Below, piece by piece: positions 989 through 22,023 of a stretch of DNA of 64,000 bases (position 1 is its first letter; each line of letters opens with the position of its first letter). The stretch covers positions 31,468 to 95,467 of the forward strand of contig CAZGKW010000013.1 of the NCBI GenBank assembly GCA_964526295.1, written 5' to 3'. The DNA comes from an uncultured Anaerolineales bacterium (GTDB lineage Bacteria > Planctomycetota > Phycisphaerae > FEN-1346). The position numbers were made by a program, and so were the translations under genes. The notes beneath the pieces were generated by a model. The model did no database searches and was not told the origin of the DNA. It saw nothing but the letters and a program-made list of their open reading frames with translations.

Positions 989-1038
989 CCGCGAAGACGC
1001 GAAACCCGAACGCCCAATGACGAATGAAGTCCGAAGCT

Positions 1039-1077
1039 CGAAGGACCACGTGTGCCAGCACACGCCTTCGTCCTTCG
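1039..1077 (+). other. Nested RNA hairpin in the acsB-acsC intergenic region
   Basis: The outer stem is cgaaggac/gtccttcg. The inner stem is cgtgtg/cacacg with a ccag loop. There is no U-tract. Confidence 0.3.
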
Positions 1078-1207
1078 CCACGGCCGGGTGATTCGTCACT
1101 CGCGCCTTCGTCATTCGGATTTCCGTGACGGCGGCCCGGGACAAATGGCTGGTTTGCGAGGCTGGCCCGCGTTACAAGATTAGGCCCAGGAAAGGACACG
1201 ACCGCCC

Positions 1208-2545: not shown

Positions 2546-2638
2546 GGGCAACCCGGTGCTGAAGGTCTGGGGCCGCCGCAAAGGGGCCGGCCGGGGGCCC
2601 CGGGCGTCGAGCGTTCCACGCATTCCGTAGGGCCGTCC

Positions 2639-4603: not shown

Positions 4604-5364
4604 GCACCACCATCGCCGTCTCCGGCAAGGGCGGCAGCGGCAAGACGACCGTCGCGGCCATGGTCGTCCGGCACCTCGTCGAGCGGGCCGGACGAAGCGT
4701 CCTGGCGGTCGACGCCGACCCGAACGCCTGCCTCGGCCTCGCCTTGGGCGTCGAGCCCGAGACGACCTGCGCCGACATCCGCGAGCAGACCCTCGACCAC
4801 AAGCTCCAGACCGGCCCCGGAATGAACCGGGAACGGGCCTTCGAGTACGCCGTCCACCGGGCCATCGCCGAGGCCAAGGGCTTCGACCTGCTGGCCATGG
4901 GCCAGCCCGAGGGCCCCAAGTGCTACTGCGCGGTCAACCACCTCCTGCGGAGCTACCTCGACTCGGCCGGCCAGGACTACGCCTTCCTCGTCCTGGATAA
5001 CGAGGCGGGTATGGAGCACCTGTCGCGGCGGACGACCAACGACGCGGACCAGTTGATCGTGGTGGCCGAGCCGACGGCCGTCGGCCTGGCGACCGCCAGG
5101 CGGATTCTCTGCCTGTCGGAGCGGCTGCCCATCCGCGTCGAGCGCCGCAGCGTCCTGTGGAACAAAGTGGCCGCCGGGTCGCCGCCTCCGCAGGCCGACG
5201 ACCTGCCCGTCGTGGGCGAGGTGCCGCTCGACGCGGGCGTGCTCGACCTCTCGATGCGCGGCGAGGCCGTCTTCGAGCTGGACGCCGACAACCCCGCCTT
5301 CCGCGCGGTCGGCGATGCACTGAACGAGCTTCTCGGACTGGCGGCCTCCGCCAAGGCCGGCTAG
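4600..5364 (+). CDS. acsF: CODH/ACS nickel-insertion accessory ATPase (CooC/AcsF, MinD/ParA family)
   Basis: It has a Walker A GKGGSGKTT at the N-terminus and a CxC (KCYC) motif. The GTG start overlaps the RACo stop (GTGA). Confidence 0.8.
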   Translation: MSTTIAVSGKGGSGKTTVAAMVVRHLVERAGRSVLAVDADPNACLGLALGVEPETTCADIREQTLDHKLQTGPGMNRERAFEYAVHRAIAEAKGFDLLAMGQPEGPKCYCAVNHLLRSYLDSAGQDYAFLVLDNEAGMEHLSRRTTNDADQLIVVAEPTAVGLATARRILCLSERLPIRVERRSVLWNKVAAGSPPPQADDLPVVGEVPLDAGVLDLSMRGEAVFELDADNPAFRAVGDALNELLGLAASAKAG

Positions 5365-5379
5365 CAAAAGGAGACCCCT

Positions 5380-6333
5380 ATGCCGTTACCCGACGTCAAG
5401 GACAGCTATTCCGGGACCGTGAACAAGATCACCCTGGGAGGCGGGGGCACCCGCACTTCGTCCGTCACCATCGGCGGGGCCAAGACCGTCCCTTACGGGG
5501 CCCAGGCCGGGGCCACCGGCAACCGGCCCGTCATCGCCGTCGACGTCCTCGACACGGCGCCCGAGGACTGGCCGCCCGTCCTGGCCGAGGTCTACCAGGA
5601 CGTCCTCCAGGACCCGGCCGCCTGGGCCAAGAAGGCCGTCGAGGAGGTCGGGGCCGACCTGGTCTGCGTCAAGTTCGACGGCATCCATCCCGACCGGGGC
5701 GACTTGGGCGCCCAGCACGCCGTCCACGTCACCCGACAGGTCCTCGAGGCCGTCGGCGTGCCGGTCATCCTGTGGGGATGCGGCAACGACGAGAAGGACA
5801 ACGAGGTCATGCCGAAGGTCTCGGAGGCGGCCAAGGGCGAGCTGGCCCTCTTGGGCACCGTCAGCCAGGACAACTATAAGAGCCTGACGGCCGTGGCGCT
5901 GGCCGACGGGCACTTCCTGATCGCCGAGGCCCCCCTCGACATCAACATCGCCAAGCAGGTCAACATCCTCGTCTCCGACATGGGCTTCCCCCTGGAGCGG
6001 CTCGTCATGTTCCAGACGACCGGGGCCCTGGGATACGGCATGGAGTACGCCTACTCGATCCAGGAGCGCGAGCGGCTCGCGGCCCTCCAGGGCGACAAGC
6101 TCATGGCCATGCCGGTCATCTGCGACGTCGGCTACGAGGCCTGGCGGGCCAAGGAGGCCAAGACGCCGACCGACGACGCCCCCGAGTGGGGCGACGCCAA
6201 GGACCGCGGCCCCGCCTGGGAGGCCGTCACCGCCGTCTCCCTGCTCCAGTCGGGCGTCGACATCATGCGGATGCGCCATCCGCAGGCCATCGCCACCGCC
6301 AGGAGCTACATCGGCAGCGTCTGGGGAGCGTAA
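5380..6333 (+). CDS. acsD: Corrinoid iron-sulfur protein small subunit (CFeSP delta)
   Basis: It is about 317 aa and of the AcsD/CdhD type. It follows acsF as in canonical acs clusters. An RBS AAGGAGA sits upstream. Confidence 0.85.
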   Translation: MPLPDVKDSYSGTVNKITLGGGGTRTSSVTIGGAKTVPYGAQAGATGNRPVIAVDVLDTAPEDWPPVLAEVYQDVLQDPAAWAKKAVEEVGADLVCVKFDGIHPDRGDLGAQHAVHVTRQVLEAVGVPVILWGCGNDEKDNEVMPKVSEAAKGELALLGTVSQDNYKSLTAVALADGHFLIAEAPLDINIAKQVNILVSDMGFPLERLVMFQTTGALGYGMEYAYSIQERERLAALQGDKLMAMPVICDVGYEAWRAKEAKTPTDDAPEWGDAKDRGPAWEAVTAVSLLQSGVDIMRMRHPQAIATARSYIGSVWGA

Positions 6334-6396
6334 AGCGCGGAACCGTTTCGCCGGCGGCCCTGCCCGCCATGCACTCAGCCTGGAAGGGGACACTGG

Positions 6397-7224
6397 ATGA
6401 TCGCAATCGGTGAACGCATCAACGGGATGTTCACGGACGTCAAGCAGGCCATCGCCGACCACGACCCCGGCCCGGTCGTCGATCTGGCCAAACGCCAGAC
6501 GGAAGCCGGCGCCGCCTACCTCGACATCAACGTCGGCACGGCCGCCGCCGACCAGGAAGCCACCATGAAGTGGCTCGTCGAGACGACCCAGGGGGCCGTC
6601 GAGACGCCCCTGTGCCTCGACAGCCAGAAGCCCGACGTCATCCGGGCCGGCCTGGAGGTCTGCGACACGGGCCGCGGCGTCCTCCTCAACAGCTCCCCCC
6701 TCAACAAGAAGAGCGACCCGGAGGTGCTCGATAAGTACGTCGGCATGGCCCAGGAGGCCGACGGCAAGCTGATCGCCCTGACGATGGACGTCGAGGGGGT
6801 CCCCCAGAACATCGACCGGCGGGTCGAGATCGCCGCCGAGCTCCTCACCAGGGCCCTGGAACTGGGCCTGACGCCCGACCGCCTCTTCATCGACCCGATC
6901 ATCCTCCCGGTCAACGTGCCCGGGGCCCAGGAGCAGCCCGGCAACATCCTGGCGGCCATCGACCAGATCAAGCTGATGTCCGACCCGCCGCCGCACATCA
7001 CGATGGGCCTGTCGAACCTCAGCCAGGGGACCGTCGAGCGGAGCCTGATCAACCGCGTCTTCGTGGCGATGGCCATCAGCCACGGCTGCGACTCGGCCAT
7101 CGTCGACGTCCTCGACGACGCCCTCGTCGACGTCGTGGCCACCAGCGAGATGCTGATGGACCAGCAGATCTACTCGGACAGCTTCCTGAGGGCCTACCGG
7201 AGCATCGCCGGGGGCCAAAGGTAG
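6397..7224 (+). CDS. acsE: Methyl-H4folate:CFeSP methyltransferase (pterin-binding, MeTr)
   Basis: It is a 275-aa pterin-binding-domain protein (IAIGERINGMF...). It is the last acs gene in the canonical order. Confidence 0.85.
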   Translation: MIAIGERINGMFTDVKQAIADHDPGPVVDLAKRQTEAGAAYLDINVGTAAADQEATMKWLVETTQGAVETPLCLDSQKPDVIRAGLEVCDTGRGVLLNSSPLNKKSDPEVLDKYVGMAQEADGKLIALTMDVEGVPQNIDRRVEIAAELLTRALELGLTPDRLFIDPIILPVNVPGAQEQPGNILAAIDQIKLMSDPPPHITMGLSNLSQGTVERSLINRVFVAMAISHGCDSAIVDVLDDALVDVVATSEMLMDQQIYSDSFLRAYRSIAGGQR

Positions 7225-7348
7225 AGCACGAAAGGAGCAGCGCGGCCCGCCTGCCTGCCCTGAGCAGGGCCGAACGGCCGGACCGGCGCGGCGCTGCCCT
7301 CGCGGGCGTTTCGCCGCCGCGCTTGCGCGGCGCGACGAGGCGAACTTC

Positions 7349-8452
7349 ATGAAGCCGTTGTACGTCAGCGCGACCAAGCAGGACACCGGCAAGACCACCG
7401 TCCTGCTCGGGCTGATGCAGGCCCTCCGAGACGCCGGCCACGACGTCGGCTACTTCAAGCCCGTCGGCCAGCGGTACGTCCAGTACGAGGGCCTGAACGT
7501 CGACGAGGACGCCGTCCTGGCCCGTCACGCCTTCGACCTGGCCGACAACCCGGGCGACATGAGCCCGATCGCCATCGAGCGGGGCTTCACGGAGCACTAC
7601 ATCTTCCACCGCGACCCGCTGCCGCTGGAGTGGCGGATGATGGAGGCCTTCGGTCGCCTCCGGGCCGCCCACGACATCCTCCTGGTCGAGGGCACCGGCC
7701 ACGCCGGCGTCGGAAGCTGCTTCGACCTGTCGAACGCCCGCGCCGCCGAGCTGTTCGGCGCCCCCGTCATCATCATCACGTCGGGCGGCATCGGCCGGGC
7801 CATCGACGAAGTCGCCCTCAGCCTCCACCTGTTCGGCAAGCACGGCGTCAACGTCATGGGCGTCATCCTGAACAAGGTCTGGCCCGAAAAGCAGGCCAAG
7901 GTCCAGCGGGCCGTCGCCGAGGGCCTCAAGCACCTCGGGACGGCCCTCCTCGGGGTCGTGCCGTACCGGTCCACGCTGGTCTACCCCCGGATCGAGCAGA
8001 TCGCCGAGGAGGCCCAAGGGCGGATCCTCTGCGGCACCGACGAGCAGCTCGAGCACATCGTCGAGCACACGGTGGTGGCGGCCATGTCGCCCCAGAACGT
8101 CTGCGCCTACATCCGGCCCCACACGCTCGTCATCACCCCGGGCGACCGGATCGACAACATCCTGATCTCGACGATCACCTGCCCGGCCGAGCAGCCCGAC
8201 GCCGGCCCGATCAGCGGCCTCGTGCTGACGGGAGGGTTCGAGCCGCCCGGCAGCATCATCGCCCTGCTCCGGTCGGCGGGCATTCCCGTCCTGCTGTGCC
8301 AGGACGACACCTACACGGTCGCGTCGCGTCTGCGGGAGCTGCGGTTCAAGATCCGCCCGGAGGACACCGAGAAGATCGAGGCCGCCAAGCTGCTCGTCCG
8401 GCACAGCATCGACGCCGACGCAATCACGGCGGCCCTTGCCGACGACGCCTGA
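7349..8452 (+). CDS. Phosphotransacetylase N-terminal-domain-like protein (BioD/CobQ-like P-loop fold plus DRTGG domain). It lacks a Pta catalytic domain.
   Basis: The N-terminal ATKQDTGKTT is a P-loop-like motif. Overall it resembles the regulatory N-terminal half of long Pta proteins. It is about 367 aa. Confidence 0.5.
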   Translation: MKPLYVSATKQDTGKTTVLLGLMQALRDAGHDVGYFKPVGQRYVQYEGLNVDEDAVLARHAFDLADNPGDMSPIAIERGFTEHYIFHRDPLPLEWRMMEAFGRLRAAHDILLVEGTGHAGVGSCFDLSNARAAELFGAPVIIITSGGIGRAIDEVALSLHLFGKHGVNVMGVILNKVWPEKQAKVQRAVAEGLKHLGTALLGVVPYRSTLVYPRIEQIAEEAQGRILCGTDEQLEHIVEHTVVAAMSPQNVCAYIRPHTLVITPGDRIDNILISTITCPAEQPDAGPISGLVLTGGFEPPGSIIALLRSAGIPVLLCQDDTYTVASRLRELRFKIRPEDTEKIEAAKLLVRHSIDADAITAALADDA

Positions 8453-8473
8453 ACCGGGAAAAATGAGCGAGGA

Positions 8474-9019
8474 ATGACGGACATGCCCGAGAAGACGGTT
8501 GCCGGCGAGGAGGCGGTCGCCTGCATCACGCCCAAAGAGGAGGAGATCGCCGCCTTCCTCGACGGCCTGGCGATCTCGCCCGAGTCGAACCTGATCGGCC
8601 TTCTCCAGAAGGTGCAGGATCGGTTCGGGTACCTGCCGCCGGGGGCGCTCGAGCAGATCAGCCGCCGCATGCGCGTGCCCTTGGTCCGCATCTGGGGCGT
8701 GGTCAGCTTCTACGCCCAGTTCTACACCGAGCCCCGGGGCCGGCACACCATCCGGTGCTGCCGCGGCACCGCCTGCCACGTCCGCGGCGCCAAGCGGGTC
8801 ATCAAGACAGTCGAGGACGTGCTCGGCATCGCCGACGGTGAGACCCGCCCGGACCTGGCGTTTTCGTTCGAGACGGTCGCGTGCCTGGGGGCGTGCGCCC
8901 TCTCGCCGGTCATGGTGGTAAACGGGACCTACTACGGGAAGCTGAACGCCCGCCGCGTCGAGGCGGTCCTGGGCCGTCTCGTGGCCGAGGAAGAGGCCAG
9001 AAAGGGGGCAAGCTCATGA
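8474..9019 (+). CDS. NuoE/HoxE/FdsG-like thioredoxin-fold [2Fe-2S] protein (24-kDa subunit family)
   Basis: It has the characteristic C..C...C..C spacing of NuoE (RCCRGTAC...CLGAC). It lies immediately upstream of a NuoF-like gene. Confidence 0.75.
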   Translation: MTDMPEKTVAGEEAVACITPKEEEIAAFLDGLAISPESNLIGLLQKVQDRFGYLPPGALEQISRRMRVPLVRIWGVVSFYAQFYTEPRGRHTIRCCRGTACHVRGAKRVIKTVEDVLGIADGETRPDLAFSFETVACLGACALSPVMVVNGTYYGKLNARRVEAVLGRLVAEEEARKGASS

Positions 9020-12000
9020 CCCCCTTCGATTCGGTCGCCACTTTCCGCCGCAGACAGGACGAGCTCAAGGCCGCCCTCGACCCCGACCGCAAGGTTGTGA
9101 CGCTTTGCGGCGGGACCGGCTGCGGCGCCCTCGGATCGGCCGACGTCTACGAAGCCTTTCGCCGGGAGCTGGACGAGCGGGGCCTGACCGAGACGATCGG
9201 CCTCAAGCGGACCGGCTGCCACGGCTTCTGCGAACAGGGGCCGGTCCTCGTCATCCTGCCGGAGAAGGTCTTCTACCCCAACGTCCAGCCCGAGGACGTC
9301 CCCGAGATCGTCGAGAAGACCCTCCTGCAGGGGAAGCTGGTCAAACGCCTGCTCTACGTCGACCCGGCCACCGGCCGCAAGGTCTCCCGGGAGCACGACG
9401 TCCCGTTCTACGCCAAGCAGCAGCGGTCCGTGTTCCGGTTCAACGGCGTGCTCGACCCGGTCGACCTCGAGGACTACATCGCCCGCGACGGATACGCGGC
9501 GGTGGCCAAGGCGCTGGCCGAGATGACGCCGGAGCAGGTCGTCGAAGAGGTCCTGGCGTCGGGCCTCCGCGGCCGCGGCGGGGCGGGCTTTCCTACCGGC
9601 CGCAAGTGGCAGTTCGCTCGGGCCGCCCGAGGGGGGCCCAAGTACCTCATCTGCAACGCCGACGAGGGCGACCCCGGGGCCTTCATGGACCGGAGCCTCC
9701 TCGAAGGGGCGCCCCACGCCGTCCTGGAGGGCATGGTCCTCGCGGCCTACGCCATCGGGGCGTCCCACGGCATCATCTACGTCCGGGCTGAGTATCCCCT
9801 GGCGGTCCAGCACACCCAGACCGCCCTGCGGCAGGCCCGCGAGGCCGGATTGCTCGGCCCTGATCTCCTCGGCACCGGCTTCGCCTTCGACGTCGAGATC
9901 CACCAGGGGGCCGGGGCGTTCGTCTGCGGCGAGGAGACCGCCCTGATCGCCTCCCTCGAAAGCGAGCGGGGCATGCCCCGGCCACGGCCGCCCTTCCCCG
10001 CCACGAGCGGCTACCGCGAATGCCCCACCATCATCAACAACGTCGAGACCCTCTCCAACGTGCCCCTGATCGTCCTGAACGGCGGCGAGTCGTATGCGAC
10101 CGTCGGCACGGACAAGTCGAAGGGCACGAAGATCTTCGCCCTGGCCGGCAAGGTCACCAGCACCGGCCTCGTCGAAGTGCCGATGGGGACGACGCTTCGC
10201 GAGATCATCTTCGACATCGGCGGCGGGGTGCCGCGTGGGCGCAAGTTCAAGGCCGCCCAGATGGGCGGACCCTCCGGCGGGTGCGTCCCGGCCCAGTACC
10301 TGGACATGCCCATCGACTACGACTCCGTCCAGGAGGTCGGGGCCATCATGGGCTCGGGCGGCCTCATCGTCATGGACGAGGCCACCTGCATGGTCGACAT
10401 CGCACGCTTCTTCACCGACTTCTGTGCCAAGGAATCGTGCGGCAAGTGCGCCCCGTGCCGCATCGGCACCAAGCGGATGCTCGAGGTGCTGGAGAAGATC
10501 TGCCGCGGCGAGGGCGAGATGGAGGACCTCGACCGCCTCGAAGACCTCGGCCGGACGATCCGCGACGCCTCCCTCTGCGGCCTGGGGCAGACCGCCGCCA
10601 ACCCGGTCCTCTCGACGCTGCGGCACTTCCGCGACGAATACGTGGCCCATATCAAGGAGAATCGCTGCCCGTCGCACGCGTGCGAGGCGCTCTCGCCCAT
10701 CACGTGCCGGAGCGCGTGCCCGGCCCACGTGAACATCCCGGAGTACGTCGCGCTGATCGCCGAGGGCCGCTTCGCCGACGCCCTCGACGTCATCCGGCGG
10801 CGGAACCCCTTGGCCTCGGTCTGCGGCCGGGCCTGTCACCACCCGTGCGAGCTGTTCTGCCGCCGCGGCGACGTCGACGAGCCGGTGGCCATCCGCCACC
10901 TGAAGCGGTTCGCCAGCGACCGGGTGAAGCAGGTCGGCGAGCCGCCCCAGTGGCAGGGCCCGAGGCGTGGCCGCGTGGCCGTCGTCGGCTCCGGCCCGGC
11001 CGGCCTGACGGCGGCCTACTTCCTCGCCCTCATGGGTCGCGAGGTCAAGGTCTTCGAGTCCCTCGACACGGTCGGCGGGATGTTGGCTGTGGGTGTGCCG
11101 CAGTACCGCCTGCCTCGCGAGGCGCTGGAGCGCGACGTCGAGTATATCCGCCGGGCCGGCGTCGAGATCGTCACGGGCCACCGCGTGGAATCGATCAAGG
11201 GCCTCCGCGAGGAGGGCTTCGACGCCATCTTTGTGGCCGCCGGGGCCCACGAGAGCTACGCGCTGGACATTCCGGGCGAGGAGCTCGAGGGCGTTCACGA
11301 TGCCATCGCGTTCCTCCGGCGGGCCGCACTCGGCGAACTGGACGCGATGTCCGGCCGCGTCGTCGTCATCGGCGGGGGAAATGCGGCCATCGACGCCGCC
11401 CGGACCGCCCTCAGGCTCGGCGCCGAGTCCGTGACGATTCTCTACCGACGCACCCGCGACGAGATGCCCGCCATCCGCGACGAGATCGACGACGCCGTCA
11501 TGGAAGGCGTCGACATCCACTTGCTGGTCTCGCCGCTGGCGATCGAGGGGGACGGCCGCGTCCGGGCGATCCGCTGTGCCGAGATGGAGCTGGGCGAGGC
11601 CGACGCCAGCGGCCGACGCCGACCCATCCCGAAGCCCGGCTGCGAGCGGGTCTTCGAGACCGACCACGTGATCGTGGCCGTCGGCCAGGCGCCGGAGCTC
11701 GACTTCGCCGCCATCGACGGCGGCCTGGTCGTCAAGCGTGGCAAGGCCGTGGCCGACCCCGTGACGCAGGAGTCGGCCGAGGGCGTCTTCGTGGGCGGCG
11801 ACGCCGTCACCGGCCCGGCGACGATCATCGAAGCCATTGCCGCCGGCCAGCGGGCGGCCATGGCGATCGACCGGCTCCTCGGGGGCAAGGGCGAGCTGCC
11901 GCCGGACCACGGCTGGGCCGCGCCGGGCAAACCCGAGCCGGATGAATCCGAGGAGGCGTCCCGGCGTCGACCCATCCGCCAGCGCTCGGCGCGCAAGCGC

Positions 12001-12093
12001 CGGGGCAACTTCGAGGAAGTCGTCAAGGGCTACTCGCTCCAGGCCGCCTGCTCCGAAGCGCGCCGGTGCCTGCGGTGTGACCTGGAGCAATGA
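9016..12093 (+). CDS. NuoF-like FMN/NAD(H)-binding [4Fe-4S] subunit fused to ferredoxin and GltD/NfnB-like FAD/NAD(P)H oxidoreductase domains
   Basis: The NuoF core motifs are present (GGAGFPTGRKW; CGKCAPCR). Downstream are 2x[4Fe-4S] ferredoxin cysteines and then the GltD-like VAVVGSGPAGLTAAYFLA dinucleotide fold. The ATG at 9016 overlaps the NuoE stop. Confidence 0.75.
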   Translation: MTPFDSVATFRRRQDELKAALDPDRKVVTLCGGTGCGALGSADVYEAFRRELDERGLTETIGLKRTGCHGFCEQGPVLVILPEKVFYPNVQPEDVPEIVEKTLLQGKLVKRLLYVDPATGRKVSREHDVPFYAKQQRSVFRFNGVLDPVDLEDYIARDGYAAVAKALAEMTPEQVVEEVLASGLRGRGGAGFPTGRKWQFARAARGGPKYLICNADEGDPGAFMDRSLLEGAPHAVLEGMVLAAYAIGASHGIIYVRAEYPLAVQHTQTALRQAREAGLLGPDLLGTGFAFDVEIHQGAGAFVCGEETALIASLESERGMPRPRPPFPATSGYRECPTIINNVETLSNVPLIVLNGGESYATVGTDKSKGTKIFALAGKVTSTGLVEVPMGTTLREIIFDIGGGVPRGRKFKAAQMGGPSGGCVPAQYLDMPIDYDSVQEVGAIMGSGGLIVMDEATCMVDIARFFTDFCAKESCGKCAPCRIGTKRMLEVLEKICRGEGEMEDLDRLEDLGRTIRDASLCGLGQTAANPVLSTLRHFRDEYVAHIKENRCPSHACEALSPITCRSACPAHVNIPEYVALIAEGRFADALDVIRRRNPLASVCGRACHHPCELFCRRGDVDEPVAIRHLKRFASDRVKQVGEPPQWQGPRRGRVAVVGSGPAGLTAAYFLALMGREVKVFESLDTVGGMLAVGVPQYRLPREALERDVEYIRRAGVEIVTGHRVESIKGLREEGFDAIFVAAGAHESYALDIPGEELEGVHDAIAFLRRAALGELDAMSGRVVVIGGGNAAIDAARTALRLGAESVTILYRRTRDEMPAIRDEIDDAVMEGVDIHLLVSPLAIEGDGRVRAIRCAEMELGEADASGRRRPIPKPGCERVFETDHVIVAVGQAPELDFAAIDGGLVVKRGKAVADPVTQESAEGVFVGGDAVTGPATIIEAIAAGQRAAMAIDRLLGGKGELPPDHGWAAPGKPEPDESEEASRRRPIRQRSARKRRGNFEEVVKGYSLQAACSEARRCLRCDLEQ

Positions 12094-12140
12094 GCTTGTC
12101 TACCGGCCGCCCCCACGCGGCCCGAGCAGAGGACCACCGG

Positions 12141-14942
12141 ATGGCCGACGACATCAAGCTGACCATCGACGGCCGCGAGGTCACCGCCCCGGCGGGCACG
12201 ACCGTCTTCCTGGCGGCCCGCCAGGCGGGCATCGACATCCCCCACCTGTGCTACGACCCGCGCCTGGGCCTGGAGCCGACCAGCTCGTGCCGCCTCTGCA
12301 TCGTCGAGGCCGAAGGGGCCCGGGCCCCCGTCCCGTCGTGCTCCTACCCGGCGGCCGACGGCATGGTGGTGCGAACCGACACGCCCGAGCTGAGGAAGAC
12401 GCGGCGGACGGTCGTCGAGCTGCTCCTCTCGGACCACCCCCAGGACTGCCTGACGTGCGAGCTGAACGGCCGGTGCGACCTCCAGAAGTACGCCTACGAG
12501 CTGGGCGTCCGCGAGTCGCGATTCCAGGGCGAGCCGGTCTATCCGAAGCCGGTCCGGGACGGGCCGGCCATCGTCTACGACGCCTCCAAGTGCATCCTGT
12601 GTGCGAGATGCGTTCAGATCTGCCAGGAGGTCCAGGTCAGCGGGGCGATCGACCTCCTGGGCCGAGGCTTCGACACGACGGTCTCCCTGCCGCCCGACCT
12701 GCCGCGGGAGGAGTCGGTCTGCGCCGAGTGCGGCAACTGCATCGACGTCTGCCCGACGGGGGCGCTCTACTACGCCGGCCGCGAGGGCCAGGGACGCTCG
12801 TGGGAGTTCGACCAGGTCCCCACGATCTGCCCCTACTGCGGGTGCGGATGCACGCTCGTCCTGAACGTTCACGACAACCGCGTCGTCTCGGTGACGGGCG
12901 AGCCGGGCCTGGGCGTCTCGAAGGGCCTGCTGTGCGTCAAGGGCCGGTTCGGGGCCGACTTCATCGGCCACGAGGAACGGCTCACGCAGCCGCTCATCCG
13001 GAAGGACGGCGAGCTGGTGCCCGCGACGTGGGACGAAGCGCTCGACCTGGTGGCCCGGAGGTTCAAGGAGGTCCGCGACCGCCACGGCCCGGATGCCCTG
13101 GCCGGCCTGTCCTCGGCCAAGACCACCAACGAAGAGAATTACCTGATGCAGAAGTTCATGCGGGCGGTCGTCGGCACGAACAACGTCGACCACTGCGCCC
13201 GCCTGTGCCACGCCTCGACCGTCGCCGGCCTGGCGCGGGCGTTCGGCTCGGGCGCCATGACCAACTCCATCCGAGACGTCGAGGTCACCGACGCCGTTTT
13301 CGTCATCGGCTCGAACACCACCGAATGCCACCCCATTATCGGGGCCGCCATCAAGCGGGCGGTCCTCCAACGCGGCGTGCCGCTTATCGTCGCCGACCCC
13401 CGGGCCATCGAGCTTACGGAGTTCGCCGCGGTCCACATGCAGCAGAAGGGCGGCACGGACGTGGCCCTCATCAACGGGATGATGCACGTCATCCTGGCCG
13501 AGGGCCTGGAGGACGCCGAGTTCATCGCCGAGCGGACCGAGGGCTTCGAGGAACTGCGCAAGGCCGTCGAGCCGTACACGCCCGAGCTGGCGGCGAAGAT
13601 CACGGGTGTGTCGGCCGAGAAGATCCGCCAGGCCGCCCGCCTGTATGCCCGCGTCGGCGCCGCCTCGATCGTCTACTCCATGGGCATCACCCAGCACACG
13701 ACCGGCACGGACAACGTCCTGTCGCTGGCGAACCTGGCCATGCTGACCGGCAACGTGGGCAAGGCCGGGGCGGGCGTCAATCCGCTCCGGGGCCAGAACA
13801 ACGTCCAGGGCGCCTGCGACCTCGGGGCCCTGCCGAACGTCTACCCCGGCTACCAGAAGGTCGACGACGAGGCCGCCCGGAAGAAGTTCGAGAAGGCATG
13901 GGACGCCGCGCTCAGCCCCACGCCGGGCCTCACCGTAGTTGAGATCATGGGCGCCGCCGCCGCGGGCAAGGTCAAGGCCCTCTACGTCATGGGCGAGAAC
14001 CCCATGCTCTCGGACCCCGACGTCAACCACGTCGAGGAGGCCCTGAAGGACCTCGACTTCCTCGTCGTTCAGGACATCTTCCTCTCGGAGACCGCCGAGC
14101 TGGCCGACGTCGTCCTGCCGGCGGCCCTGTTCGCCGAGAAGGAAGGCACGTTCACCAACACCGACCGCCACGTCCAGCGGTTCCGCAAGGCCGTCGACGC
14201 GCCCGGCGAGGCCCGGCCCGACTGGGAGATCCTCTCGGACCTCGCCCGCCGCATGGGCCACGAGATGAGCTACTCGGGCCCCTCGGCCATCCAGGACGAG
14301 ATCGCCTCGCTGACGCCCATCTACGGCGGCATCACCTACGACCGTCTCGAGACGGGCGGCATTCAGTGGCCCTGCCCCGACCGCGACCACCCCGGCACGC
14401 CGTTCCTCCACCAGGGCAAGTTCACCCGCGGGCTGGGCAAGTTCCACCCGGTCGAGTTCGTCCCGCCGAAGGAGCTGCCCGACGATGAGTACCCGTTCGT
14501 GCTCTCGACGGGCCGCATCCTCCAACACTTCCACACCGGGACAATGTCGAGGCGCTCGGAGGTGCTCGACCGGCTCGTCTCGGTCGGGGCGATCGAGGTC
14601 CATCCCGACGACGCCGAGCGGCTCAGCATCGAAGACTCCCAGCCCGTCCGCGTGGCCTCGAGGCGAGGCGAGATCGAGATTTCCGCCCGCGTGACGCCGC
14701 GCGTCGCCCCGGGCACGTGCTTCCTGGCGTTTCACTACCGCGAGGCCCCGGCCAACCGCCTGACCATCGCAGCCCTCGACCCCGTGGCGAAAATCCCCGA
14801 GCTGAAGGTCTGTGCGGTCAAGATCGAGCCGGCCCCGACCCGCGACCGGGAGGTCGCAGGGGCCCCCGGCCACCGGGAGTCCTCCGCCCCCGAACGGGCG
14901 AGCGGTGCGGCCGCGGACCATCAATCGCCGGCCGACTCGTGA
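12141..14942 (+). CDS. fdhA: Formate dehydrogenase catalytic subunit of the NAD(P)-linked FdsA/FdhF family. It is a Mo/W-bisPGD enzyme with a Cys (not Sec) ligand.
   Basis: It has an N-terminal 2Fe-2S domain, NuoG-like FeS domains and the CPYCGCGC Mo-oxidoreductase 4Fe-4S motif. Active-site RLCHAS aligns with RVUHGPS of FdhF, with Cys in place of Sec. There is no in-frame TGA. Confidence 0.85.
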   Translation: MADDIKLTIDGREVTAPAGTTVFLAARQAGIDIPHLCYDPRLGLEPTSSCRLCIVEAEGARAPVPSCSYPAADGMVVRTDTPELRKTRRTVVELLLSDHPQDCLTCELNGRCDLQKYAYELGVRESRFQGEPVYPKPVRDGPAIVYDASKCILCARCVQICQEVQVSGAIDLLGRGFDTTVSLPPDLPREESVCAECGNCIDVCPTGALYYAGREGQGRSWEFDQVPTICPYCGCGCTLVLNVHDNRVVSVTGEPGLGVSKGLLCVKGRFGADFIGHEERLTQPLIRKDGELVPATWDEALDLVARRFKEVRDRHGPDALAGLSSAKTTNEENYLMQKFMRAVVGTNNVDHCARLCHASTVAGLARAFGSGAMTNSIRDVEVTDAVFVIGSNTTECHPIIGAAIKRAVLQRGVPLIVADPRAIELTEFAAVHMQQKGGTDVALINGMMHVILAEGLEDAEFIAERTEGFEELRKAVEPYTPELAAKITGVSAEKIRQAARLYARVGAASIVYSMGITQHTTGTDNVLSLANLAMLTGNVGKAGAGVNPLRGQNNVQGACDLGALPNVYPGYQKVDDEAARKKFEKAWDAALSPTPGLTVVEIMGAAAAGKVKALYVMGENPMLSDPDVNHVEEALKDLDFLVVQDIFLSETAELADVVLPAALFAEKEGTFTNTDRHVQRFRKAVDAPGEARPDWEILSDLARRMGHEMSYSGPSAIQDEIASLTPIYGGITYDRLETGGIQWPCPDRDHPGTPFLHQGKFTRGLGKFHPVEFVPPKELPDDEYPFVLSTGRILQHFHTGTMSRRSEVLDRLVSVGAIEVHPDDAERLSIEDSQPVRVASRRGEIEISARVTPRVAPGTCFLAFHYREAPANRLTIAALDPVAKIPELKVCAVKIEPAPTRDREVAGAPGHRESSAPERASGAAADHQSPADS

Positions 14943-15766
14943 GCGACACGGAACATCCCGGCGCCGTCCGCCCCGTCCCTGTGTGGCGCGTCGGCCCGCC
15001 GGGCGCCGATGCCTCCGACTGCTCCGCCGGCGCGACCGACGACGTCATCGTCGAGCGGGTCGTGGCCCTCTCCCTGAACGGCCGGACGATCGTCCGGATG
15101 AGCTGCCTGCCGGAAGCGCTCGAGGACCTCGCCGTCGGGTTCCTCGCCTCGGAGGGGCTCATCGACGGCATCGACGCGATCCACGAGCTGAACGTCGCCG
15201 ACGGCGCGACCCGCGTCGAGGTGCGGGCCGGCGTCGATCCGGACCGGCTGGTGCGATTCCTGGAGCGTCTGGCGGCAAGCTCCGGCTGCGGCGGAGGGGC
15301 GTCGAGCGAGCCGGCCGCCCTGCCCCGCGTCGCCGGCGACGCGCGGTTCCGCCCCGAAGACGTATCCGCCCGGATGAGCGACCTGGTCCGGGCGTCGGCG
15401 CTCTTTCGCACGACCGGCGGCGTCCACGCGGCCGCGATCGCCGACGCCGAGGAACTGGCCGCCGTTGCCGAGGACATCGGCCGACACAACGCCGCCGACA
15501 AGACCATCGGCCGCTGCCTGCGGGAGGGCATCGACTTGGGCGGGACGATGCTGCTCTCGACCGGCCGCCTGAGCGCCGACATCCTGGCCAAGGCCGCCCG
15601 GGCCGGCGTGCCCGTCGTCGTCAGCCGGGGCGCCGTCATGTCGCGAGCCGTCGAGCTGGCCGAGGCGGCCGGCGTCGCGGCGGTCGGCTTCGCCCGCGCC
15701 GGGCGGATGAACGTCTACTCGGCCGCGTGGCGGCTGGGCCTCGCCGACGCGCCGAGCGGAGGCTGA
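14939..15766 (+). CDS. fdhD: Formate dehydrogenase accessory sulfurtransferase FdhD
   Basis: The conserved IGRHNAADK motif is present. It is about 275 aa. The GTG start overlaps the fdhA stop (GTGA). Confidence 0.8.
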   Translation: MSDTEHPGAVRPVPVWRVGPPGADASDCSAGATDDVIVERVVALSLNGRTIVRMSCLPEALEDLAVGFLASEGLIDGIDAIHELNVADGATRVEVRAGVDPDRLVRFLERLAASSGCGGGASSEPAALPRVAGDARFRPEDVSARMSDLVRASALFRTTGGVHAAAIADAEELAAVAEDIGRHNAADKTIGRCLREGIDLGGTMLLSTGRLSADILAKAARAGVPVVVSRGAVMSRAVELAEAAGVAAVGFARAGRMNVYSAAWRLGLADAPSGG

Positions 15767-15771
15767 CCCCG

Positions 15772-16968
15772 ATGATCACGCCCGAGGAAGCCCTCCGGAC
15801 CATCCTGGAGCACACCCCGCGGCTCGAGGCGGTCGAGGTGCCGCTCCTGGACGCCGTGGGAGCATGCCTCGCCGAGCCGGTCGCGAGCGACCTGGACCTG
15901 CCGCCGTTCGACAAGAGCGCGATGGACGGCTTCGCGGCCCGCGCTGACGACCTGGCGGAGACCCCCGTCGAGCTCGAGATCGTCGAGGAGGTCCCCGCCG
16001 GCGTCGCCCCGAGGCGGGCGGTCGCACAAGGCACCTGTGCGAAGATCATGACCGGCGCGCCCGTGCCGGAGGGCGCCGACGTCGTCGTCCGCGTCGAGGA
16101 CACCGAGCCCGCCGGGGTCGACCGCGTCCGCATCCTCCGGGCCGACCCCAAGCGCCGGAACATCTGCTCCCGCGGCGAGGACGTCCGCCGGGGCGAGGCG
16201 GTCCTGGAGACCGGGACGGTCGTCGAGCCGGCCGAGGTCGGCGTGCTCGCGAGTGTCGGCCGGGACCGCGTCTGCATCGTCCGGCGGCCGCGCGTCGCCG
16301 TCCTGGCGACCGGCGACGAGCTGGTCGGCATCACGGAGGTGCCCGGGCCGGGCGAGATTCGCGACTCGAACTCCTGGGGCCTGCTGGCCTGCTGCCGCCG
16401 GGCGGGCGTCCCGGCCGAGTGCCTGGGCGTCGCCCGCGACGACGAGGCGGACCTGGCCGAGAAGATCGGCCGGGGCCTCCAGCGCGACGTGCTCCTCGTC
16501 TCGGGCGGCGTCAGCATGGGCGAATGGGACCTCGTGCCGAAGGTCTTCGACTCGCTCGGCGTGACGACGCGGTTCCATGCGATCCGCCAGAAGCCCGGCA
16601 AGCCGACGGTGTTTTCGACCCGCCGGGAGCGGCTCGTCTTCGGCCTGCCGGGGAACCCCGTCTCGACGCTCGTGGGCTTTCGCCTTTACGTCTGGCCGGC
16701 GCTTCGGAAGATGATGGGGCACCCGGAGCCGGCCCCGCCGCCGCTCGTGGCAGCGCTGGCGGCCGAGTCGTCGATCCGTGGCGACCGGACGGCCTTCGCC
16801 CCGGCGGCGCTTCGGTGGGAAGCAGGCGGCTACGTCGCCGAGGTGGTCCCGACGCACGGGTCGGCCGACCTGGTGGCCTTCAGCCGGGCCGACGCCCTGG
16901 CCGTCCTCGAGCCCGGCCGCCACGGGCCCGGCGCCCGCGTGACGGTCCATCCCCTCGACCTGTCCTGA
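15772..16968 (+). CDS. moeA: Molybdopterin molybdotransferase MoeA
   Basis: It is 398 aa with MoeA-type domain order. The GGVSMG motif is present. Confidence 0.85.
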   Translation: MITPEEALRTILEHTPRLEAVEVPLLDAVGACLAEPVASDLDLPPFDKSAMDGFAARADDLAETPVELEIVEEVPAGVAPRRAVAQGTCAKIMTGAPVPEGADVVVRVEDTEPAGVDRVRILRADPKRRNICSRGEDVRRGEAVLETGTVVEPAEVGVLASVGRDRVCIVRRPRVAVLATGDELVGITEVPGPGEIRDSNSWGLLACCRRAGVPAECLGVARDDEADLAEKIGRGLQRDVLLVSGGVSMGEWDLVPKVFDSLGVTTRFHAIRQKPGKPTVFSTRRERLVFGLPGNPVSTLVGFRLYVWPALRKMMGHPEPAPPPLVAALAAESSIRGDRTAFAPAALRWEAGGYVAEVVPTHGSADLVAFSRADALAVLEPGRHGPGARVTVHPLDLS

Positions 16969-19383: not shown

Positions 19384-19387
19384 GAGC

Positions 19388-21939: not shown

Positions 21940-22023
21940 CTCTCACCCCCAGTGGAAAGGTGCGGTCGGTACCCCGTCCCCAGCCGCACTCATGATCACA
22001 CCCCGGCGGGTGGGGACTTCCGT

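Follow-up and report, generated by a model that had tools for sequence, protein, structure and literature searches.

A candidate NAD(H)- and NADP(H)-linked formate dehydrogenase with a GltD cassette in place of the ferredoxin-reducing domain

Three overlapping genes in a Wood–Ljungdahl gene cluster may encode a ferredoxin-independent formate dehydrogenase that exchanges electrons with both NAD(H) and NADP(H), the two nucleotide sites acting in parallel; on the sequence evidence we give this reading about an even chance. The genes lie in the window, the whole 64,000-nucleotide stretch of DNA analysed here, and encode a NuoE-like subunit, a NuoF-type subunit fused to a GltD cassette, and FdhA. 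By alignment, a circularly permuted cassette of the Stn/NfnABC kind exactly replaces the B3/B4 domain of the NuoF-type subunit.

Gene layout and the catalytic subunit

ORF and Pfam analysis placed the three ORFs on the plus strand at the coordinates in Table 1, inside the Wood–Ljungdahl cluster and followed by fdhD and moeA. The nuoE stop overlaps the nuoF::gltD ATG (ATGA, 9016–9019), the nuoF::gltD stop overlaps the fdhA start (ATGA, 12090–12093) and the fdhA stop overlaps the GTG start of fdhD (GTGA, 14939–14942). The moeA start is preceded by GGAGG. The first-pass annotation had described the trio as NuoE, a NuoF of about 1025 aa extended by Fe–S clusters and a complete GltD-type FAD/NAD(P)H domain, and a Cys-type FdhA; Pfam order and TIGR01591 bear this out, and the length counted from ATG 9016, like the identical database protein, agrees.

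Table 1 Features of the trio and its surroundings in the window
Feature	Position	Strand	Basis or note
acsB, truncated by window edge	2–988	+	upstream of trio
acsC	1184–2545	+	upstream of trio
RACo	2639–4603	+	upstream of trio
cooC-like	4600–5364	+	upstream of trio
acsD	5380–6333	+	upstream of trio
acsE	6397–7224	+	upstream of trio
AAA_26/DRTGG protein	7349–8452	+	upstream of trio
nuoE/bfuC-like gene, 181 aa, thioredoxin-like [2Fe-2S] subunit	8474–9019	+	PF01257, E = 4e-45
nuoF::gltD fusion gene, 1025 aa	9016–12093	+	Pfam domains; 100% identical to database protein P0001
N-terminal thioredoxin-like [2Fe-2S] site 'B5' (Cys31, 36, 68, 72)	9103–9231	+	partial PF01257
NuoF/BfuB core with SLBB domain, fusion gene	9454–10653	+	PF01512, PF10531, PF10589
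'B2'/Zn site (Cys458, Cys496, His545, Cys551, Cys556; H-x5-C-x4-C), interleaved with B1	10387–10683	+	alignment
GltD-type Fe-S domain (Cys564, 568; Cys603, 607, 611, 615)	10702–10860	+	PF14691
FAD domain (GSGPAG 658–663) and NADP(H) domain (GGGNAA 786–791; YRR 810–812)	10972–11847	+	PF07992; Lys630 lies just before
Permuted C-terminal segment, residues 982–1022 (...NFEEV...RRCLRCD)	11959–12081	+	NfnB alignment
fdhA, 950 aa	12090–14942	+	TIGR01591, Pfam, FdsA alignment
FdhA NuoG-like N-terminus, 2Fe-2S and 4Fe-4S clusters	12150–12767	+	domain search
FdhA Mo/W-bis-PGD catalytic domain	12816–14816	+	domain search
Cys373 codon TGC, Mo/W ligand, His374 next	13206–13208	+	FdsA alignment, codon read
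fdhD, formate dehydrogenase sulfurtransferase/chaperone	14939–15766	+	PF02634, E = 1e-67
moeA, molybdopterin molybdenum/tungsten insertion	15772–16968	+	PF03453, PF00994, PF03454

At least 13 more loci, spread over many phyla (Planctomycetota, Armatimonadota, Methylomirabilis-like, Chloroflexota, Desulfobacterota and others), carry the same trio, and the arrangement is widespread among uncultured microbes. Together with the gene overlaps, this recurrence makes the physical complex with FdhA assumed in the first pass likely. That the NuoE and NuoF::GltD proteins form a free-standing Stn- or Nfn-like transhydrogenase, beside fdhA by chance, is very improbable: the two flavin and nucleotide sites needed are there, but start/stop overlaps flank the fusion gene on both sides, the fusion–FdhA pairing is found again and again, and every readable fusion neighbour has a NuoG-like N-terminus (FdhA, HydA or HoxU-like), the kind that docks on NuoF-type subunits.

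FdhA scores 885.7 bits on the TIGR01591 (Fdh-alpha) model, against a cut-off of 666, and matches its closest solved structure, R. capsulatus FdsA (6TG9), over its full length with 803 bits. CARLCHAST, which holds the ligand Cys373, aligns with CARVCHSPT of FdsA, where the ligand is also Cys, and both the Cys–His pair and Arg567 (in NPLRGQNNVQG) are conserved between the two; FdhA thus looks catalytically competent. An alternative start lies at ATG 12141, and a C-terminal tail of about 35 aa is missing in relatives. Cys often replaces Sec, and the substitution is unremarkable. The locus L081, whose fusion protein is 71% identical to ours, has an in-frame TGA exactly at the Cys373 position, as does L013, and L020, L082 and L083 have Cys there. 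The TGA in L081 marks a Sec/Cys position, so the TGC-encoded Cys of the window, noted in the first pass, is genuine.

The Bfu-type core and the cassette junction

The NuoE-like subunit (cluster ligands Cys96, 101, 137 and 141) finds its best eight matches among solved structures exclusively in bifurcating Bfu C subunits (149–105 bits), compared with 95 bits for NuoE and 77–89 bits for FdsG. The fusion protein, numbered here from Met1 at ATG 9016, is matched at 62% identity or more by over 120 clusters of full-length homologues, and its Pfam order is partial 2Fe-2S_thioredx, Complex1_51K, SLBB, NADH_4Fe-4S, Fer4_20 and Pyr_redox_2. Its NuoF part reaches 492 bits on TIGR01959, under the 559-bit cut-off, and 670–780 bits against BfuB chains versus 375–423 bits against FdsB or complex I NuoF; Foldseek ranks 1–13 are B subunits of bifurcating enzymes without exception. 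The core retains FMN and NAD(H) site motifs (GRGGAGFPTGRKW, CNADEGDPGAFMD, GAGAFVCGEETALI), the [4Fe-4S] 'B1' ligands Cys475, 478, 481 and 521, and the PGAFMD signature. The B2 residues align one by one with C438, C476, H525, C531 and C536 of A. mobile BfuB (ligand naming from PMC9304861), and the site is kept in 24 of 24 fusions, with C, T or S at position 496. The B5 cysteines are invariant in 25 close relatives, although the first two are missing in 9 of the 24 distant fusions. These comparisons clearly assign the NuoE-like subunit and the NuoF part to the Bfu type and not to the simple FdsGB type.

We compared the region beyond B2 in 81 proteins, including 24 full-length fusions and 53 non-fused BfuBs. 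The GltD Fe–S domain of the window begins seven residues past the B2 site, and the cassette sits at one fixed junction in all 24 fusions, exactly where the 53 non-fused proteins carry two CxxCxxCxxxC motifs (B3/B4). The 2x[4Fe-4S] ferredoxin-reducing B3/B4 domain is absent from the fusion in this comparison. Could the enzyme nonetheless depend on ferredoxin and NAD, as a bifurcating formate dehydrogenase of the HylABC–FdhF2 or Fdh-Bfu kind, with ferredoxin docking elsewhere (for example, at the GltD clusters or FdhA) and NADPH as an additional or regulatory ligand? Its core is of the Bfu type, reduced ferredoxin is made via CODH in Wood–Ljungdahl organisms, and three non-fused Bfu-FDH loci (L029, L040 and L056) also adjoin acs genes. 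We consider it improbable, because B3/B4 is gone, the operon has no ferredoxin gene, and the FAD/NADPH motifs are conserved more strictly than a vestigial or regulatory role would require. In the structure of T. sibiricus NfnABC, ferredoxin lies 12.8 Å from B3 and from B4, and the mutants tested there included one in B4 (PMC12018979).

Within the cassette, residues 563–958 align to T. maritima NfnB 46–462 and residues 982–1022 to NfnB 3–43. The latter, permuted segment would contribute two ligands of the first GltD cluster, Cys1018 and Cys1021, and its RCLRCD motif is invariant in the relatives compared (25 closer relatives and 24 fusions). The first pass had proposed alignment with NfnB and FdsB; the cassette does align with NfnB, and FdsB proved a poorer match than BfuB. 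Scores against the GltD cassettes of NfnA (9bov_A) and StnC (8oh5_C) are 332–388 bits, with window residues 563–1022 matching residues 103–567 of StnC and Csac NfnA. GSGPAG, GGGNAA, YRR and the eight cluster cysteines are present and essentially invariant in the 24 fusions (more than 12 phyla) and the 25 closer relatives, so the degeneracy that the first pass had named as a risk is not seen; the FAD and NADPH site and the NADH/FMN site are both under strong purifying selection.

The second Rossmann strand ends in YRR without an acidic residue, as it does in aligned StnC, NfnA and NfnB, a pattern that we take to denote NADPH specificity in the family. In one relative (L005), this 2'-phosphate motif alone is altered, from YRR to CLE, which looks like a specificity switch at a working site rather than decay. 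These observations bear on the idea that the enzyme uses NADPH only (Moorella-like) or NADH only (FdsGBA-like), the second nucleotide site being structural or regulatory. The GltD cassette alone suffices in two-subunit relatives, and NuoEF alone in FdsGBA enzymes; yet all cofactor and nucleotide motifs are kept at both sites across phyla, and the L005 change suggests a site in use, making a single-nucleotide enzyme quite improbable.

Comparison with known enzymes

The electron-bifurcating Stn and NfnABC (Nfn-Bfu) transhydrogenases of S. ovata, C. saccharolyticus and T. sibiricus share with the window Bfu-type NuoE-like and NuoF-like subunits, a formate-dehydrogenase-like third subunit and the permuted cassette, in which Lys occupies the place of StnC K170. 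In those enzymes, however, the cassette is an insertion within the NuoG-like subunit rather than a C-terminal part of the NuoF-like one, B3/B4 remain on the NuoF-like subunit and ferredoxin is reduced, and the formate-dehydrogenase-like domain has lost its pterin site, whereas the window FdhA passes the formate dehydrogenase equivalog model. The first-pass statement that the architecture is seen in bifurcating or confurcating complexes therefore does not hold for these characterised enzymes. Its suggestion of possible flavin-based bifurcation also fares poorly for the GltD FAD: the cassette has Lys where non-bifurcating StnC has Lys and bifurcating NfnB has Glu, and we found no NfnA/NfnS-type partner gene in the cluster, which together make bifurcation there unlikely.

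The bifurcating formate dehydrogenases (HylABC–FdhF2 of G. acidurici and Fdh-Bfu types 1–3) likewise combine a Bfu-type BC core with a pterin formate dehydrogenase, type 1 having its pterin in the A subunit as here. They use ferredoxin and NAD and are defined by a BfuB with the ferredoxin-type domain IPR017896 (Schut et al. 2022); this domain is missing from the fusion, so such proteins fall outside that catalogue as defined. NAD+-dependent FdsGBA of R. capsulatus and C. necator has the same three-subunit NuoE/NuoF/FdhA layout, but FdsB and FdsG match the window far more poorly than Bfu subunits do, the features given for FdsB do not include a GltD cassette, and R. capsulatus Fdh is without B2–B5 clusters (Schut et al., PMC9304861).

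The Moorella thermoacetica-type NADP+ formate dehydrogenase (FdhA and FdhB, EC 1.17.1.10) is similar by database names and one paper's domain description: its FdhA has a NuoG-like N-terminus, its beta subunit joins the NuoF C-terminal [4Fe-4S] domain to a permuted GltD cassette at the same junction and ends in RCLRC, and it serves the Wood–Ljungdahl methyl branch. The window differs in about 460 extra N-terminal residues (2Fe-2S domain and complete FMN/NAD(H) domain), a B2 His/Cys site that the short beta subunits have lost, a NuoE-like third subunit, and Cys rather than Sec in FdhA. Proteins of 610–680 aa with this domain pair at the same junction and no FMN module are named 'formate dehydrogenase (NADP+) beta subunit' in IMG and occur in two-gene operons; IMG-named examples (A2) are 39–45% identical to window residues 435–705, and one such gene lies directly 5' of an fdhA gene at a locus that lacks both an FMN domain and NuoE. 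In these FMN-less proteins, the cassette must feed the B1 domain or FdhA directly.

Elsewhere, the fused module is partnered by [FeFe] hydrogenase or by a glutamate-synthase-like protein. By description, it resembles HydB of archaeal hybrid [FeFe]/[NiFe] hydrogenase complexes, in which AlphaFold models show a NuoF-like diaphorase with a glutamate-synthase small-subunit-type domain (Greening et al., Cell 2024, PMC11216029), although the partner there is a hydrogenase rather than a formate dehydrogenase. Ferredoxin binding to that domain was a guess by the authors, and the paper gives no analysis of junction, motifs or NADPH.

Electron path, coupling and pathway role

In our proposal, the products of the three genes would assemble into a single soluble formate dehydrogenase in the cytoplasm. 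FdhA would be an FdsA-like catalytic subunit with Mo or W bis-PGD, Cys373 as ligand and an N-terminal NuoG-type Fe–S chain; the NuoE-like subunit and fusion residues 1–556 would make up a Bfu-type NAD(H)/FMN module that holds the B1, B2 and N-terminal [2Fe-2S] sites; and the last 460 residues would hold two [4Fe-4S] clusters, FAD and an NADPH-type Rossmann site. NADPH would pass hydride to FAD, from which single electrons would travel via the two GltD clusters to the B1 region, a route suggested by domain order, while NADH would pass hydride to FMN, adjoining B1. From B1, electrons would reach the pterin through the FdhA clusters and reduce CO2 to formate, every step being reversible. With both nucleotides as inputs and no ferredoxin site, formate/CO2 would be linked to both pyridine-nucleotide pools, and we favour parallel inputs or outputs over obligatory coupling.

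An obligatorily coupled Bfu-type enzyme, with NADP(H) in ferredoxin's place, is a less likely but serious contender, at perhaps one chance in four. Here the B1–FMN–C1 site would split or merge electrons among formate/CO2 (through B1 and FdhA), NAD(H) (at FMN) and NADP(H) (through the swinging cluster of NuoE and the GltD clusters). The reaction could be 2 formate + NAD+ + NADP+ = 2 CO2 + NADH + NADPH or, Stn-like, 2 NADPH + NAD+ + CO2 = 2 NADP+ + NADH + formate, in which case downhill transfer from NADPH to NAD+ would pay for CO2 reduction without ferredoxin. Consistent with coupling, all Bfu features save B3/B4 are kept (B2 site, PGAFMD, N-terminal 2Fe-2S and BfuC-like subunit), the cassette is of the same permuted, Lys-containing type as in Stn/NfnABC, the module, like Bfu cores, is also found with [FeFe] hydrogenase, and the cassette occupies the exact place of the usual low-potential exit, which in Bfu enzymes runs from C1 through B3 and B4 to ferredoxin (PMC12018979, PMC11829005). 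An FMN site that acts only as a parallel NADH entry would also leave the Bfu type of NuoE and NuoF difficult to account for. On the other side, the FMN-less relatives with the same junction are NADP+ formate dehydrogenases by annotation, so a cassette can reach the main chain without a swinging cluster; both acceptors are downhill from formate, making coupling unnecessary; and no gating is visible in the sequence. Even for the parallel arrangement that we prefer, a plain FAD–clusters–B1–FMN wire would let NADPH reduce NAD+ as an uncoupled transhydrogenase, something that cells usually avoid, so some gating is likely.

Placed within a Wood–Ljungdahl operon, the enzyme would make or consume methyl-branch formate. 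The first-pass assignment to this pathway is plausible for the window genome and fits the acs genes beside the trio, but it does not extend to the family: acs genes lie within 10 kb in only 2 of 14 formate-dehydrogenase-linked fusion loci (the window and L081). One fusion locus adjoins a cbb3 oxidase.

Gene order and the formate dehydrogenase subunit

Because the G+C content of the window is around 70%, spurious open reading frames (ORFs) are plentiful; third-position G+C picks out a single run of plus-strand genes, at 2-16968. Translation, Pfam domains and overlapping start and stop codons confirmed that the three ORFs claimed for 8474-14942 by the first-pass annotation are real genes, encoding a NuoE-like protein, a NuoF::GltD fusion and FdhA. 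The table collects these and the other features discussed here.

Features of the window and of related loci (L numbers are loci of other genomes that carry relatives of window genes)
Feature	Sequence	Position	Strand	Remarks
acsB, acsC, RACo, cooC-like, acsD, acsE and AAA_26/DRTGG protein genes	window		+	upstream, same strand
cooC/acsF-like P-loop gene	window	4600-5364	+	GTG overlaps RACo stop codon
nuoE-like	window	8474-9019	+	181 aa, thioredoxin-like [2Fe-2S]; PF01257, E = 4e-45
nuoF::gltD fusion	window	9016-12093	+	ATG 9016 overlaps NuoE stop (ATGA); 1025 aa, identical to database protein P0001
Last 41 residues of the GltD cassette	window	11959-12081	+	permuted segment of the cassette
fdhA	window	12090-14942	+	ATG 12090 overlaps fusion stop (ATGA); 950 aa; alternative start possible at ATG 12141
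C-terminal tail of FdhA	window	14835-14942	+	~35 residues, Pro/Ala/Ser/Arg-rich
fdhD	window	14939-15766	+	GTGA overlap with fdhA
moeA	window	15772-16968	+	next after fdhD
nrfA (cytochrome c552 nitrite reductase) and nrfH	window	17379-19416	-	immediately beyond the Wood-Ljungdahl/formate dehydrogenase cluster and convergent to it
mobB-mobA fusion, MOSC/MogA-like gene, moaC	window	19388-21942	-	near the formate dehydrogenase genes
799-aa ORF	window	31856-34255	-	cyclic-nucleotide-binding domain, acetate kinase, PduL-type phosphotransacylase (PTAC)
Fused module with glutamate-synthase-domain protein	L001	483-6424		Eubacteriales MAG
Fused module with glutamate-synthase-domain protein	L014	9598-18178		Promethearchaeota (Loki) MAG
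Fused module followed by HydA	L004	1428-7352		PF02906 and PF02256 confirmed
Fused module followed by HydA	L010	9441-14869		PF02906 and PF02256 confirmed
Fusion with C-L-E in place of Y-R-R	L005	2368-3864		Deltaproteobacteria MAG
Formyl-THF synthetase gene	L081	7736-8906		gene call split into two short pieces (261 and 115 aa)
Complex I operon	L085	2838-14034		FMN-less protein at the nuoF position

The cooC/acsF-like gene occupies the 3' portion of a long open frame (2806-5364), which overlaps RACo in another frame, and such a gene is easily missed at 70% G+C. A gene-free gap or a pseudogene at 4604-5364 was ruled out, the cooC-like gene being there in another frame. On the other side of the trio, the mobB-mobA fusion, the MOSC/MogA-like gene and moaC make up a local pterin-cofactor gene set with fdhD and moeA, and the position of nrfA and nrfH may mean that oxidation of formate or acetyl-CoA is tied to nitrite ammonification. 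The 799-aa ORF joins the last two acetate-forming steps to a possible cNMP sensor.

FdhA has the formate dehydrogenase alpha features that we tested. It scores 885.7 bits on TIGR01591 (formate dehydrogenase alpha; curated cut-off 666.25), contains PF04879 and the [4Fe-4S] cluster adjoining the pterin, and keeps the active-site Cys-His and the conserved Arg in PLRGQNNVQG. Its best solved full-length relative is FdsA of R. capsulatus (803 bits), whose CARVCHSPT aligns with CARLCHAST and places the ligand at Cys373, codon TGC. The cysteine previously noted at the Mo/W ligand position is therefore no annotation artefact, and relatives have TGA at the same position: in L081, a locus whose fusion is 71% identical to that of the window, fdhA carries an in-frame TGA exactly at the Cys373 position (CART*HAPT). 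Among other fusion-linked fdhA genes, the codon is TGA in L013 and encodes Cys in L020, L082 and L083, so that Cys is one of two ordinary states of the family. Searches for tRNAs (including tRNA-Sec) and Rfam families detected none within the 64-kb window. The C-terminal tail of FdhA is absent from its relatives in L082, L083 and L084, which are 897-904 aa long.

A Bfu-type NuoF joined to a GltD cassette

Residues of the fusion are numbered from Met1 at 9016. The N-terminal 556 residues of the fusion comprise a thioredoxin-like 2Fe-2S domain followed by Complex1_51K, SLBB and NADH_4Fe-4S (Pfam), and the FMN/NAD(H), SLBB and NuoF-type [4Fe-4S] domains of BfuB are all present (PF01512, PF10531 and PF10589). 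Its best solved-structure matches are without exception B subunits of bifurcating Bfu enzymes, at around 670-780 bits: NiFe-HydB of A. mobile (780 bits), HydB of T. kivui and A. woodii (around 712 bits), and NfnB of T. sibiricus and C. saccharolyticus, HydB of T. maritima and StnB of S. ovata (around 670 bits). Non-bifurcating relatives are much weaker, with 375-423 bits for FdsB and around 400 bits for complex I NuoF. Foldseek searches with an AlphaFold model of the fusion (mean pLDDT 82.7) ranked the B subunits as the sequence search did and confirmed both halves of the protein. The NuoE-like protein, with its thioredoxin-like [2Fe-2S] domain (PF01257), has BfuC chains as its top solved-structure matches (105-149 bits, versus 77-95 bits to NuoE or FdsG). 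The features of FdsGBA-type small subunits were not found: the score was 492 bits on TIGR01959 (cut-off 559), and the NuoE-like protein reached 128 bits on NuoE models (cut-off 141) and 122 bits on the formate dehydrogenase gamma subunit model (cut-off 198).

The Bfu definition includes IPR011538, IPR019554 and IPR019575 plus IPR017896 for BfuB, and IPR002023 for BfuC (PMC9304861); the family is further marked by reduction of NAD+ and of ferredoxin in tight coupling, with a third substrate as donor. The features that separate bifurcating BfuB, as listed by Schut et al., are the B2 ligands and an Ala and a Met near FMN (A202 and M204 in A. mobile BfuB; PMC9304861). In a residue-level alignment, C458, C496, H545, C551 and C556 of the fusion correspond to the A. 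mobile BfuB ligands C438, C476, H525, C531 and C536, and its DPGAFMD segment bears the Bfu-type Ala and Met. The N-terminal cysteines (31, 36, 68 and 72) and those of B1 (475, 478, 481 and 521) are likewise complete.

The likeness ends at the C-terminal 2x[4Fe-4S] ferredoxin-type domain of BfuB (IPR017896), the route to ferredoxin, which the fusion lacks. In 53 non-fused BfuB homologues from genomes, two CxxCxxCxxxC motifs (B3 and B4) come 11-12 residues beyond H-x5-C-x4-C, on a tail of mostly 60-70 residues. In 24 full-length fusions (that of the window and 23 others), the same H-x5-C-x4-C gives way 7 residues later to the C-x3-CP of a GltD-type Fe-S domain, the tail is around 480 residues long, and no ferredoxin-type CxxCxxCxxxC motif occurs after the B2 site. 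Comparing the two sets indicates that the GltD cassette substitutes for B3/B4 at a single fixed point.

In alignments with 8oh5_C, 9bov_A and 9n5u_A, the counterpart of residues 563-1022 of the fusion is the GltD cassette of the Nfn-Bfu/Stn transhydrogenases, at residues 103-567 both in NfnA of C. saccharolyticus (388 bits) and in StnC of S. ovata (331 bits); the match to T. maritima NfnB is weaker (316 bits). Compared with NfnB (4ylf_B) and GltD, the cassette is circularly permuted: its last 41 residues (...NFEEV...RRCLRCD) correspond to NfnB 3-43 and the rest to NfnB 46-462. The N-terminal CxxC segment of NfnB thus forms the extreme C-terminus of the window fusion and of the fusions at L001-L023, and StnC and NfnA share the permutation. 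Eight cysteines (564, 568, 603, 607, 611, 615, 1018 and 1021) are enough for two [4Fe-4S] clusters. The cassette also contains GSGPAG (FAD), GGGNAA and YRR, the last at a position where StnC, NfnA and NfnB, whose cassettes bind NADP(H), have it too; YRR without an acidic residue at the strand end we take to be a sign of NADPH specificity. These motif residues are essentially invariant both across the 24 fusions, with identities of 44-56% and members in more than 12 phyla, and among 25 closer relatives. The earlier description of a 1025-aa NuoF homologue extended by Fe-S clusters and a complete GltD-type FAD/NAD(P)H domain therefore holds, and the degenerate GltD motifs that would have spoken against it were rejected. 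In the L005 fusion, C-L-E replaces Y-R-R after the second Rossmann strand, an acidic residue that suggests a FAD-side site switched to NADH.

The first-pass annotation had gone on to propose that the enzyme might bifurcate electrons at a flavin, and here the comparison with known families is less favourable. At the cluster adjoining FAD, non-bifurcating StnC has Lys170 where bifurcating NfnB has Glu (PMC10482914). The corresponding residue is Lys630 in the window protein and Lys or His (His in 5 of 24), never Glu, across the fusions. NfnAB differs in having this Glu ligand on the proximal cluster of NfnB/L and a PyrK-like NfnA/S partner; no gene for such a subunit was found among those at 2-21942. 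Bifurcation at the FAD itself is unlikely given the Lys in place of Glu and the missing partner. A NfnAB-like bifurcating FAD and chance adjacency of a free-standing transhydrogenase were both rejected. The architecture that had been remarked on stands, and the interpretation put on it is supported in part.

The bifurcating transhydrogenases Stn/NfnABC come closer, sharing the permuted cassette, FAD, the NADPH site and the Lys (Lys630 = StnC K170). However, their cassette sits inside a NuoG-like subunit, whereas that of the window is at the C-terminus of a NuoF-like one, and their formate-dehydrogenase-like domain has no pterin site, unlike the window FdhA with its 885.7 bits on TIGR01591 and conserved Cys-His-Arg. 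Judged by its sequence, the enzyme is an assembly of known parts in a new arrangement and not a member of Bfu, Stn, NfnAB or FdsGBA, because a defining feature of each was looked for and found missing.

Candidate electron routes

The junction search also returned complete proteins of 610-680 aa that contain the NuoF C-terminal [4Fe-4S] domain (PF10589), Fer4_20 and Pyr_redox_2, end in RCLRC and have lost the B2 His/Cys site. Several carry the IMG label 'formate dehydrogenase (NADP+) beta subunit', and at locus L086 such a short gene immediately precedes fdhA; an MTHFR gene is close by, and both NuoE and an FMN domain are absent. The architecture of the NADP+ formate dehydrogenase beta subunit (FdhAB, EC 1.17.1.10) is contained in the window protein, with the same junction; the window protein is 460 residues longer and is joined by a third subunit. 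This possible link is drawn from the IMG names and the description in PMC5736913, Moorella being compared by description only. The window protein would read as a NADP-type beta subunit to which a complete Bfu-type NAD(H)/FMN module and a small subunit have been added. Because the short proteins have neither FMN nor the NuoE cluster, their GltD clusters must feed the B1 domain or FdhA directly. A further FMN-less protein occurs in the L085 complex I operon (nuoA, B, C, D, a 74-aa NuoE remnant, two nuoG-like genes, nuoH and nuoI), where the nuoF position is taken by a 677-aa protein with only the NuoF C-terminal 4Fe-4S domain and the GltD cassette (20 contigs), suggesting a complex I with FAD/NADPH-type input.

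Cryo-EM studies place Bfu bifurcation at B1-FMN-C1: mid-potential electrons enter via B1, and low-potential electrons exit on the swinging C1 to B3, B4 and ferredoxin (PMC12018979, PMC11829005 and PMC10482914). The predicted layout of the window enzyme has the formate dehydrogenase chain on the B1 side and the NADPH/FAD cassette where B3/B4 stood. Two readings agree with this layout. We are evenly balanced on whether it provides two parallel inputs, in which NADPH (through FAD and the two GltD clusters) and NADH (through FMN) would both feed B1, and B1 the pterin. The NuoE cluster would then be a side cluster, as it is in FdsGBA and complex I. The FMN-less relatives back this parallel-input reading. 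We think it improbable that the Bfu site instead still gates electrons, with NADP(H) in the place of ferredoxin: such coupling would account for the retention of all Bfu-specific features bar B3/B4, and for how an uncoupled NADPH:NAD+ short circuit is avoided.

It is similarly doubtful that the NuoE and NuoF::GltD proteins form the core of an unrecognized ferredoxin-free Bfu branch with NADP(H) in the ferredoxin arm. The module would in that case tie a third, low-potential couple (CO2/formate in the window; H+/H2 or glutamate synthase in relatives) energetically to the NADH and NADPH pools, a possible reaction being 2 NADPH + NAD+ + CO2 = 2 NADP+ + NADH + formate. Standard potentials are about -430 mV for CO2/formate and -320 mV for each of the two nucleotides, which makes the oxidation of formate by NAD+ or NADP+ downhill. 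In the opposite direction, CO2 reduction requires a low formate level or a Stn-like reaction paid for in part by electron transfer from NADPH to NAD+. Dependence on ferredoxin is unlikely because the B3/B4 domain is missing.

The energetics of the Wood-Ljungdahl pathway are set by the way in which CO2 is converted to formate and by the reductant used. Organisms are known to use ferredoxin, NADPH (Moorella), H2 (HDCR) or NADH with ferredoxin (bifurcating enzymes); the window enzyme appears to join the NADPH solution to a complete Bfu-type NADH module from which the ferredoxin domain has been dropped. The family is a natural test of whether ferredoxin is needed at all by the Bfu flavin/cluster site, and a candidate ferredoxin-independent route from formate or H2 to both NADH and NADPH. 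Were the ferredoxin-free branch real, Wood-Ljungdahl organisms could drive CO2 reduction without spending reduced ferredoxin, and many hydrogenases now labelled 'A3, NAD/ferredoxin-bifurcating' would be doing something else.

Distribution and partner proteins

The nearest named relatives of P0001 come from Planctomycetota and Phycisphaerae metagenome-assembled genomes (MAGs). The protein database holds more than 120 full-length homologue clusters at 62% identity or above, the named ones from Planctomycetota/Phycisphaerae, Armatimonadota and Methylomirabilis and labelled only 'NuoF' or 'FAD-dependent oxidoreductase'. A 121-residue junction query reached E = 1e-30 or better against 42 representatives of 50%-identity clusters, and nearly all of its best 150 hits cross the junction. 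In contig searches that took one genome for each species, most of the 600 pattern matches listed were ordinary HydB loci, with at least 23 full-length fusion loci among them, all at 56% identity or less; partner frequencies from these loci represent a sample, not a census. They fall in Bacillota (a Eubacteriales MAG), Chloroflexota, Desulfobacterota, Armatimonadota, Actinomycetota, Acidobacteriota, Bacteroidota, Verrucomicrobiota, Omnitrophota, Planctomycetota, Alphaproteobacteria and a Promethearchaeota (Loki) MAG. When 81 NuoF core sequences were placed in a neighbour-joining tree, the fusions were scattered through a star-like base, and the tree speaks neither for nor against a single origin of them.

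Among these listed loci (at least 23), NuoE lies upstream of the fusion wherever the contig extends far enough, and the neighbouring gene, wherever readable, has a NuoG-like N-terminus in all. That neighbour is FdhA in nine, the [FeFe] hydrogenase HydA in around six (L004, L010, L011, L015, L016 and L017; PF02906 confirmed in the first two) and a short HoxU-like protein in around five. Four closer loci (L081, L082, L083 and L084) keep the order NuoE-fusion-FdhA, and a predicted complex of these three proteins is well supported. L081, the relative whose Wood-Ljungdahl cluster is fullest, also bears RACo, cooC, acsD, acsE, MTHFR and FTHFS genes; a cbb3 oxidase adjoins L082, a formate/nitrite transporter domain is encoded upstream in L083, and the neighbours in L084 are uninformative. 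Of 14 formate-dehydrogenase-linked fusion loci, only the window and L081 include acs genes at a distance of 10 kb or less; the proposed Wood-Ljungdahl role applies to certain lineages only. The split of the formyl-THF synthetase gene of L081 may be a frameshift or an assembly error.

The arrangement is widespread, its proposed functions being read from the encoded proteins. Uncultured Planctomycetota, Armatimonadota, NC10-like bacteria, Chloroflexota and Desulfobacterota commonly carry the fused module, which also occurs in the Promethearchaeota (Loki) MAG and serves [FeFe] hydrogenases and a glutamate-synthase-like partner as well. Present catalogues mislabel or omit it. The Bfu survey required the ferredoxin-type domain in the architecture by which BfuB was chosen, and left metagenomic data aside (PMC9304861), so the family would fall outside it. 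Genome pipelines call the protein 'NuoF'. HydDB puts any [FeFe] hydrogenase that precedes a 'NuoF' domain into the bifurcating group A3, and keeps A2 for GltD without NuoF, a rule that would label fusion-linked hydrogenases as NAD/ferredoxin-bifurcating although the ferredoxin domain is absent. Our literature search found no paper on the formate-dehydrogenase-linked form; a NuoF-like subunit bearing a glutamate-synthase domain came up in one place only, AlphaFold models of archaeal hybrid hydrogenases, for which the authors guessed a ferredoxin partner (PMC11216029).

In L001 and L014, the NuoE gene, the fusion and the gene for the HoxU-like Fe-S protein are followed by that for a protein of around 530 aa with a glutamate-synthase FMN domain, a set that possibly encodes an NADH/NADPH-linked glutamate synthase. 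In the L014 archaeon, two glutamate dehydrogenase genes come next.
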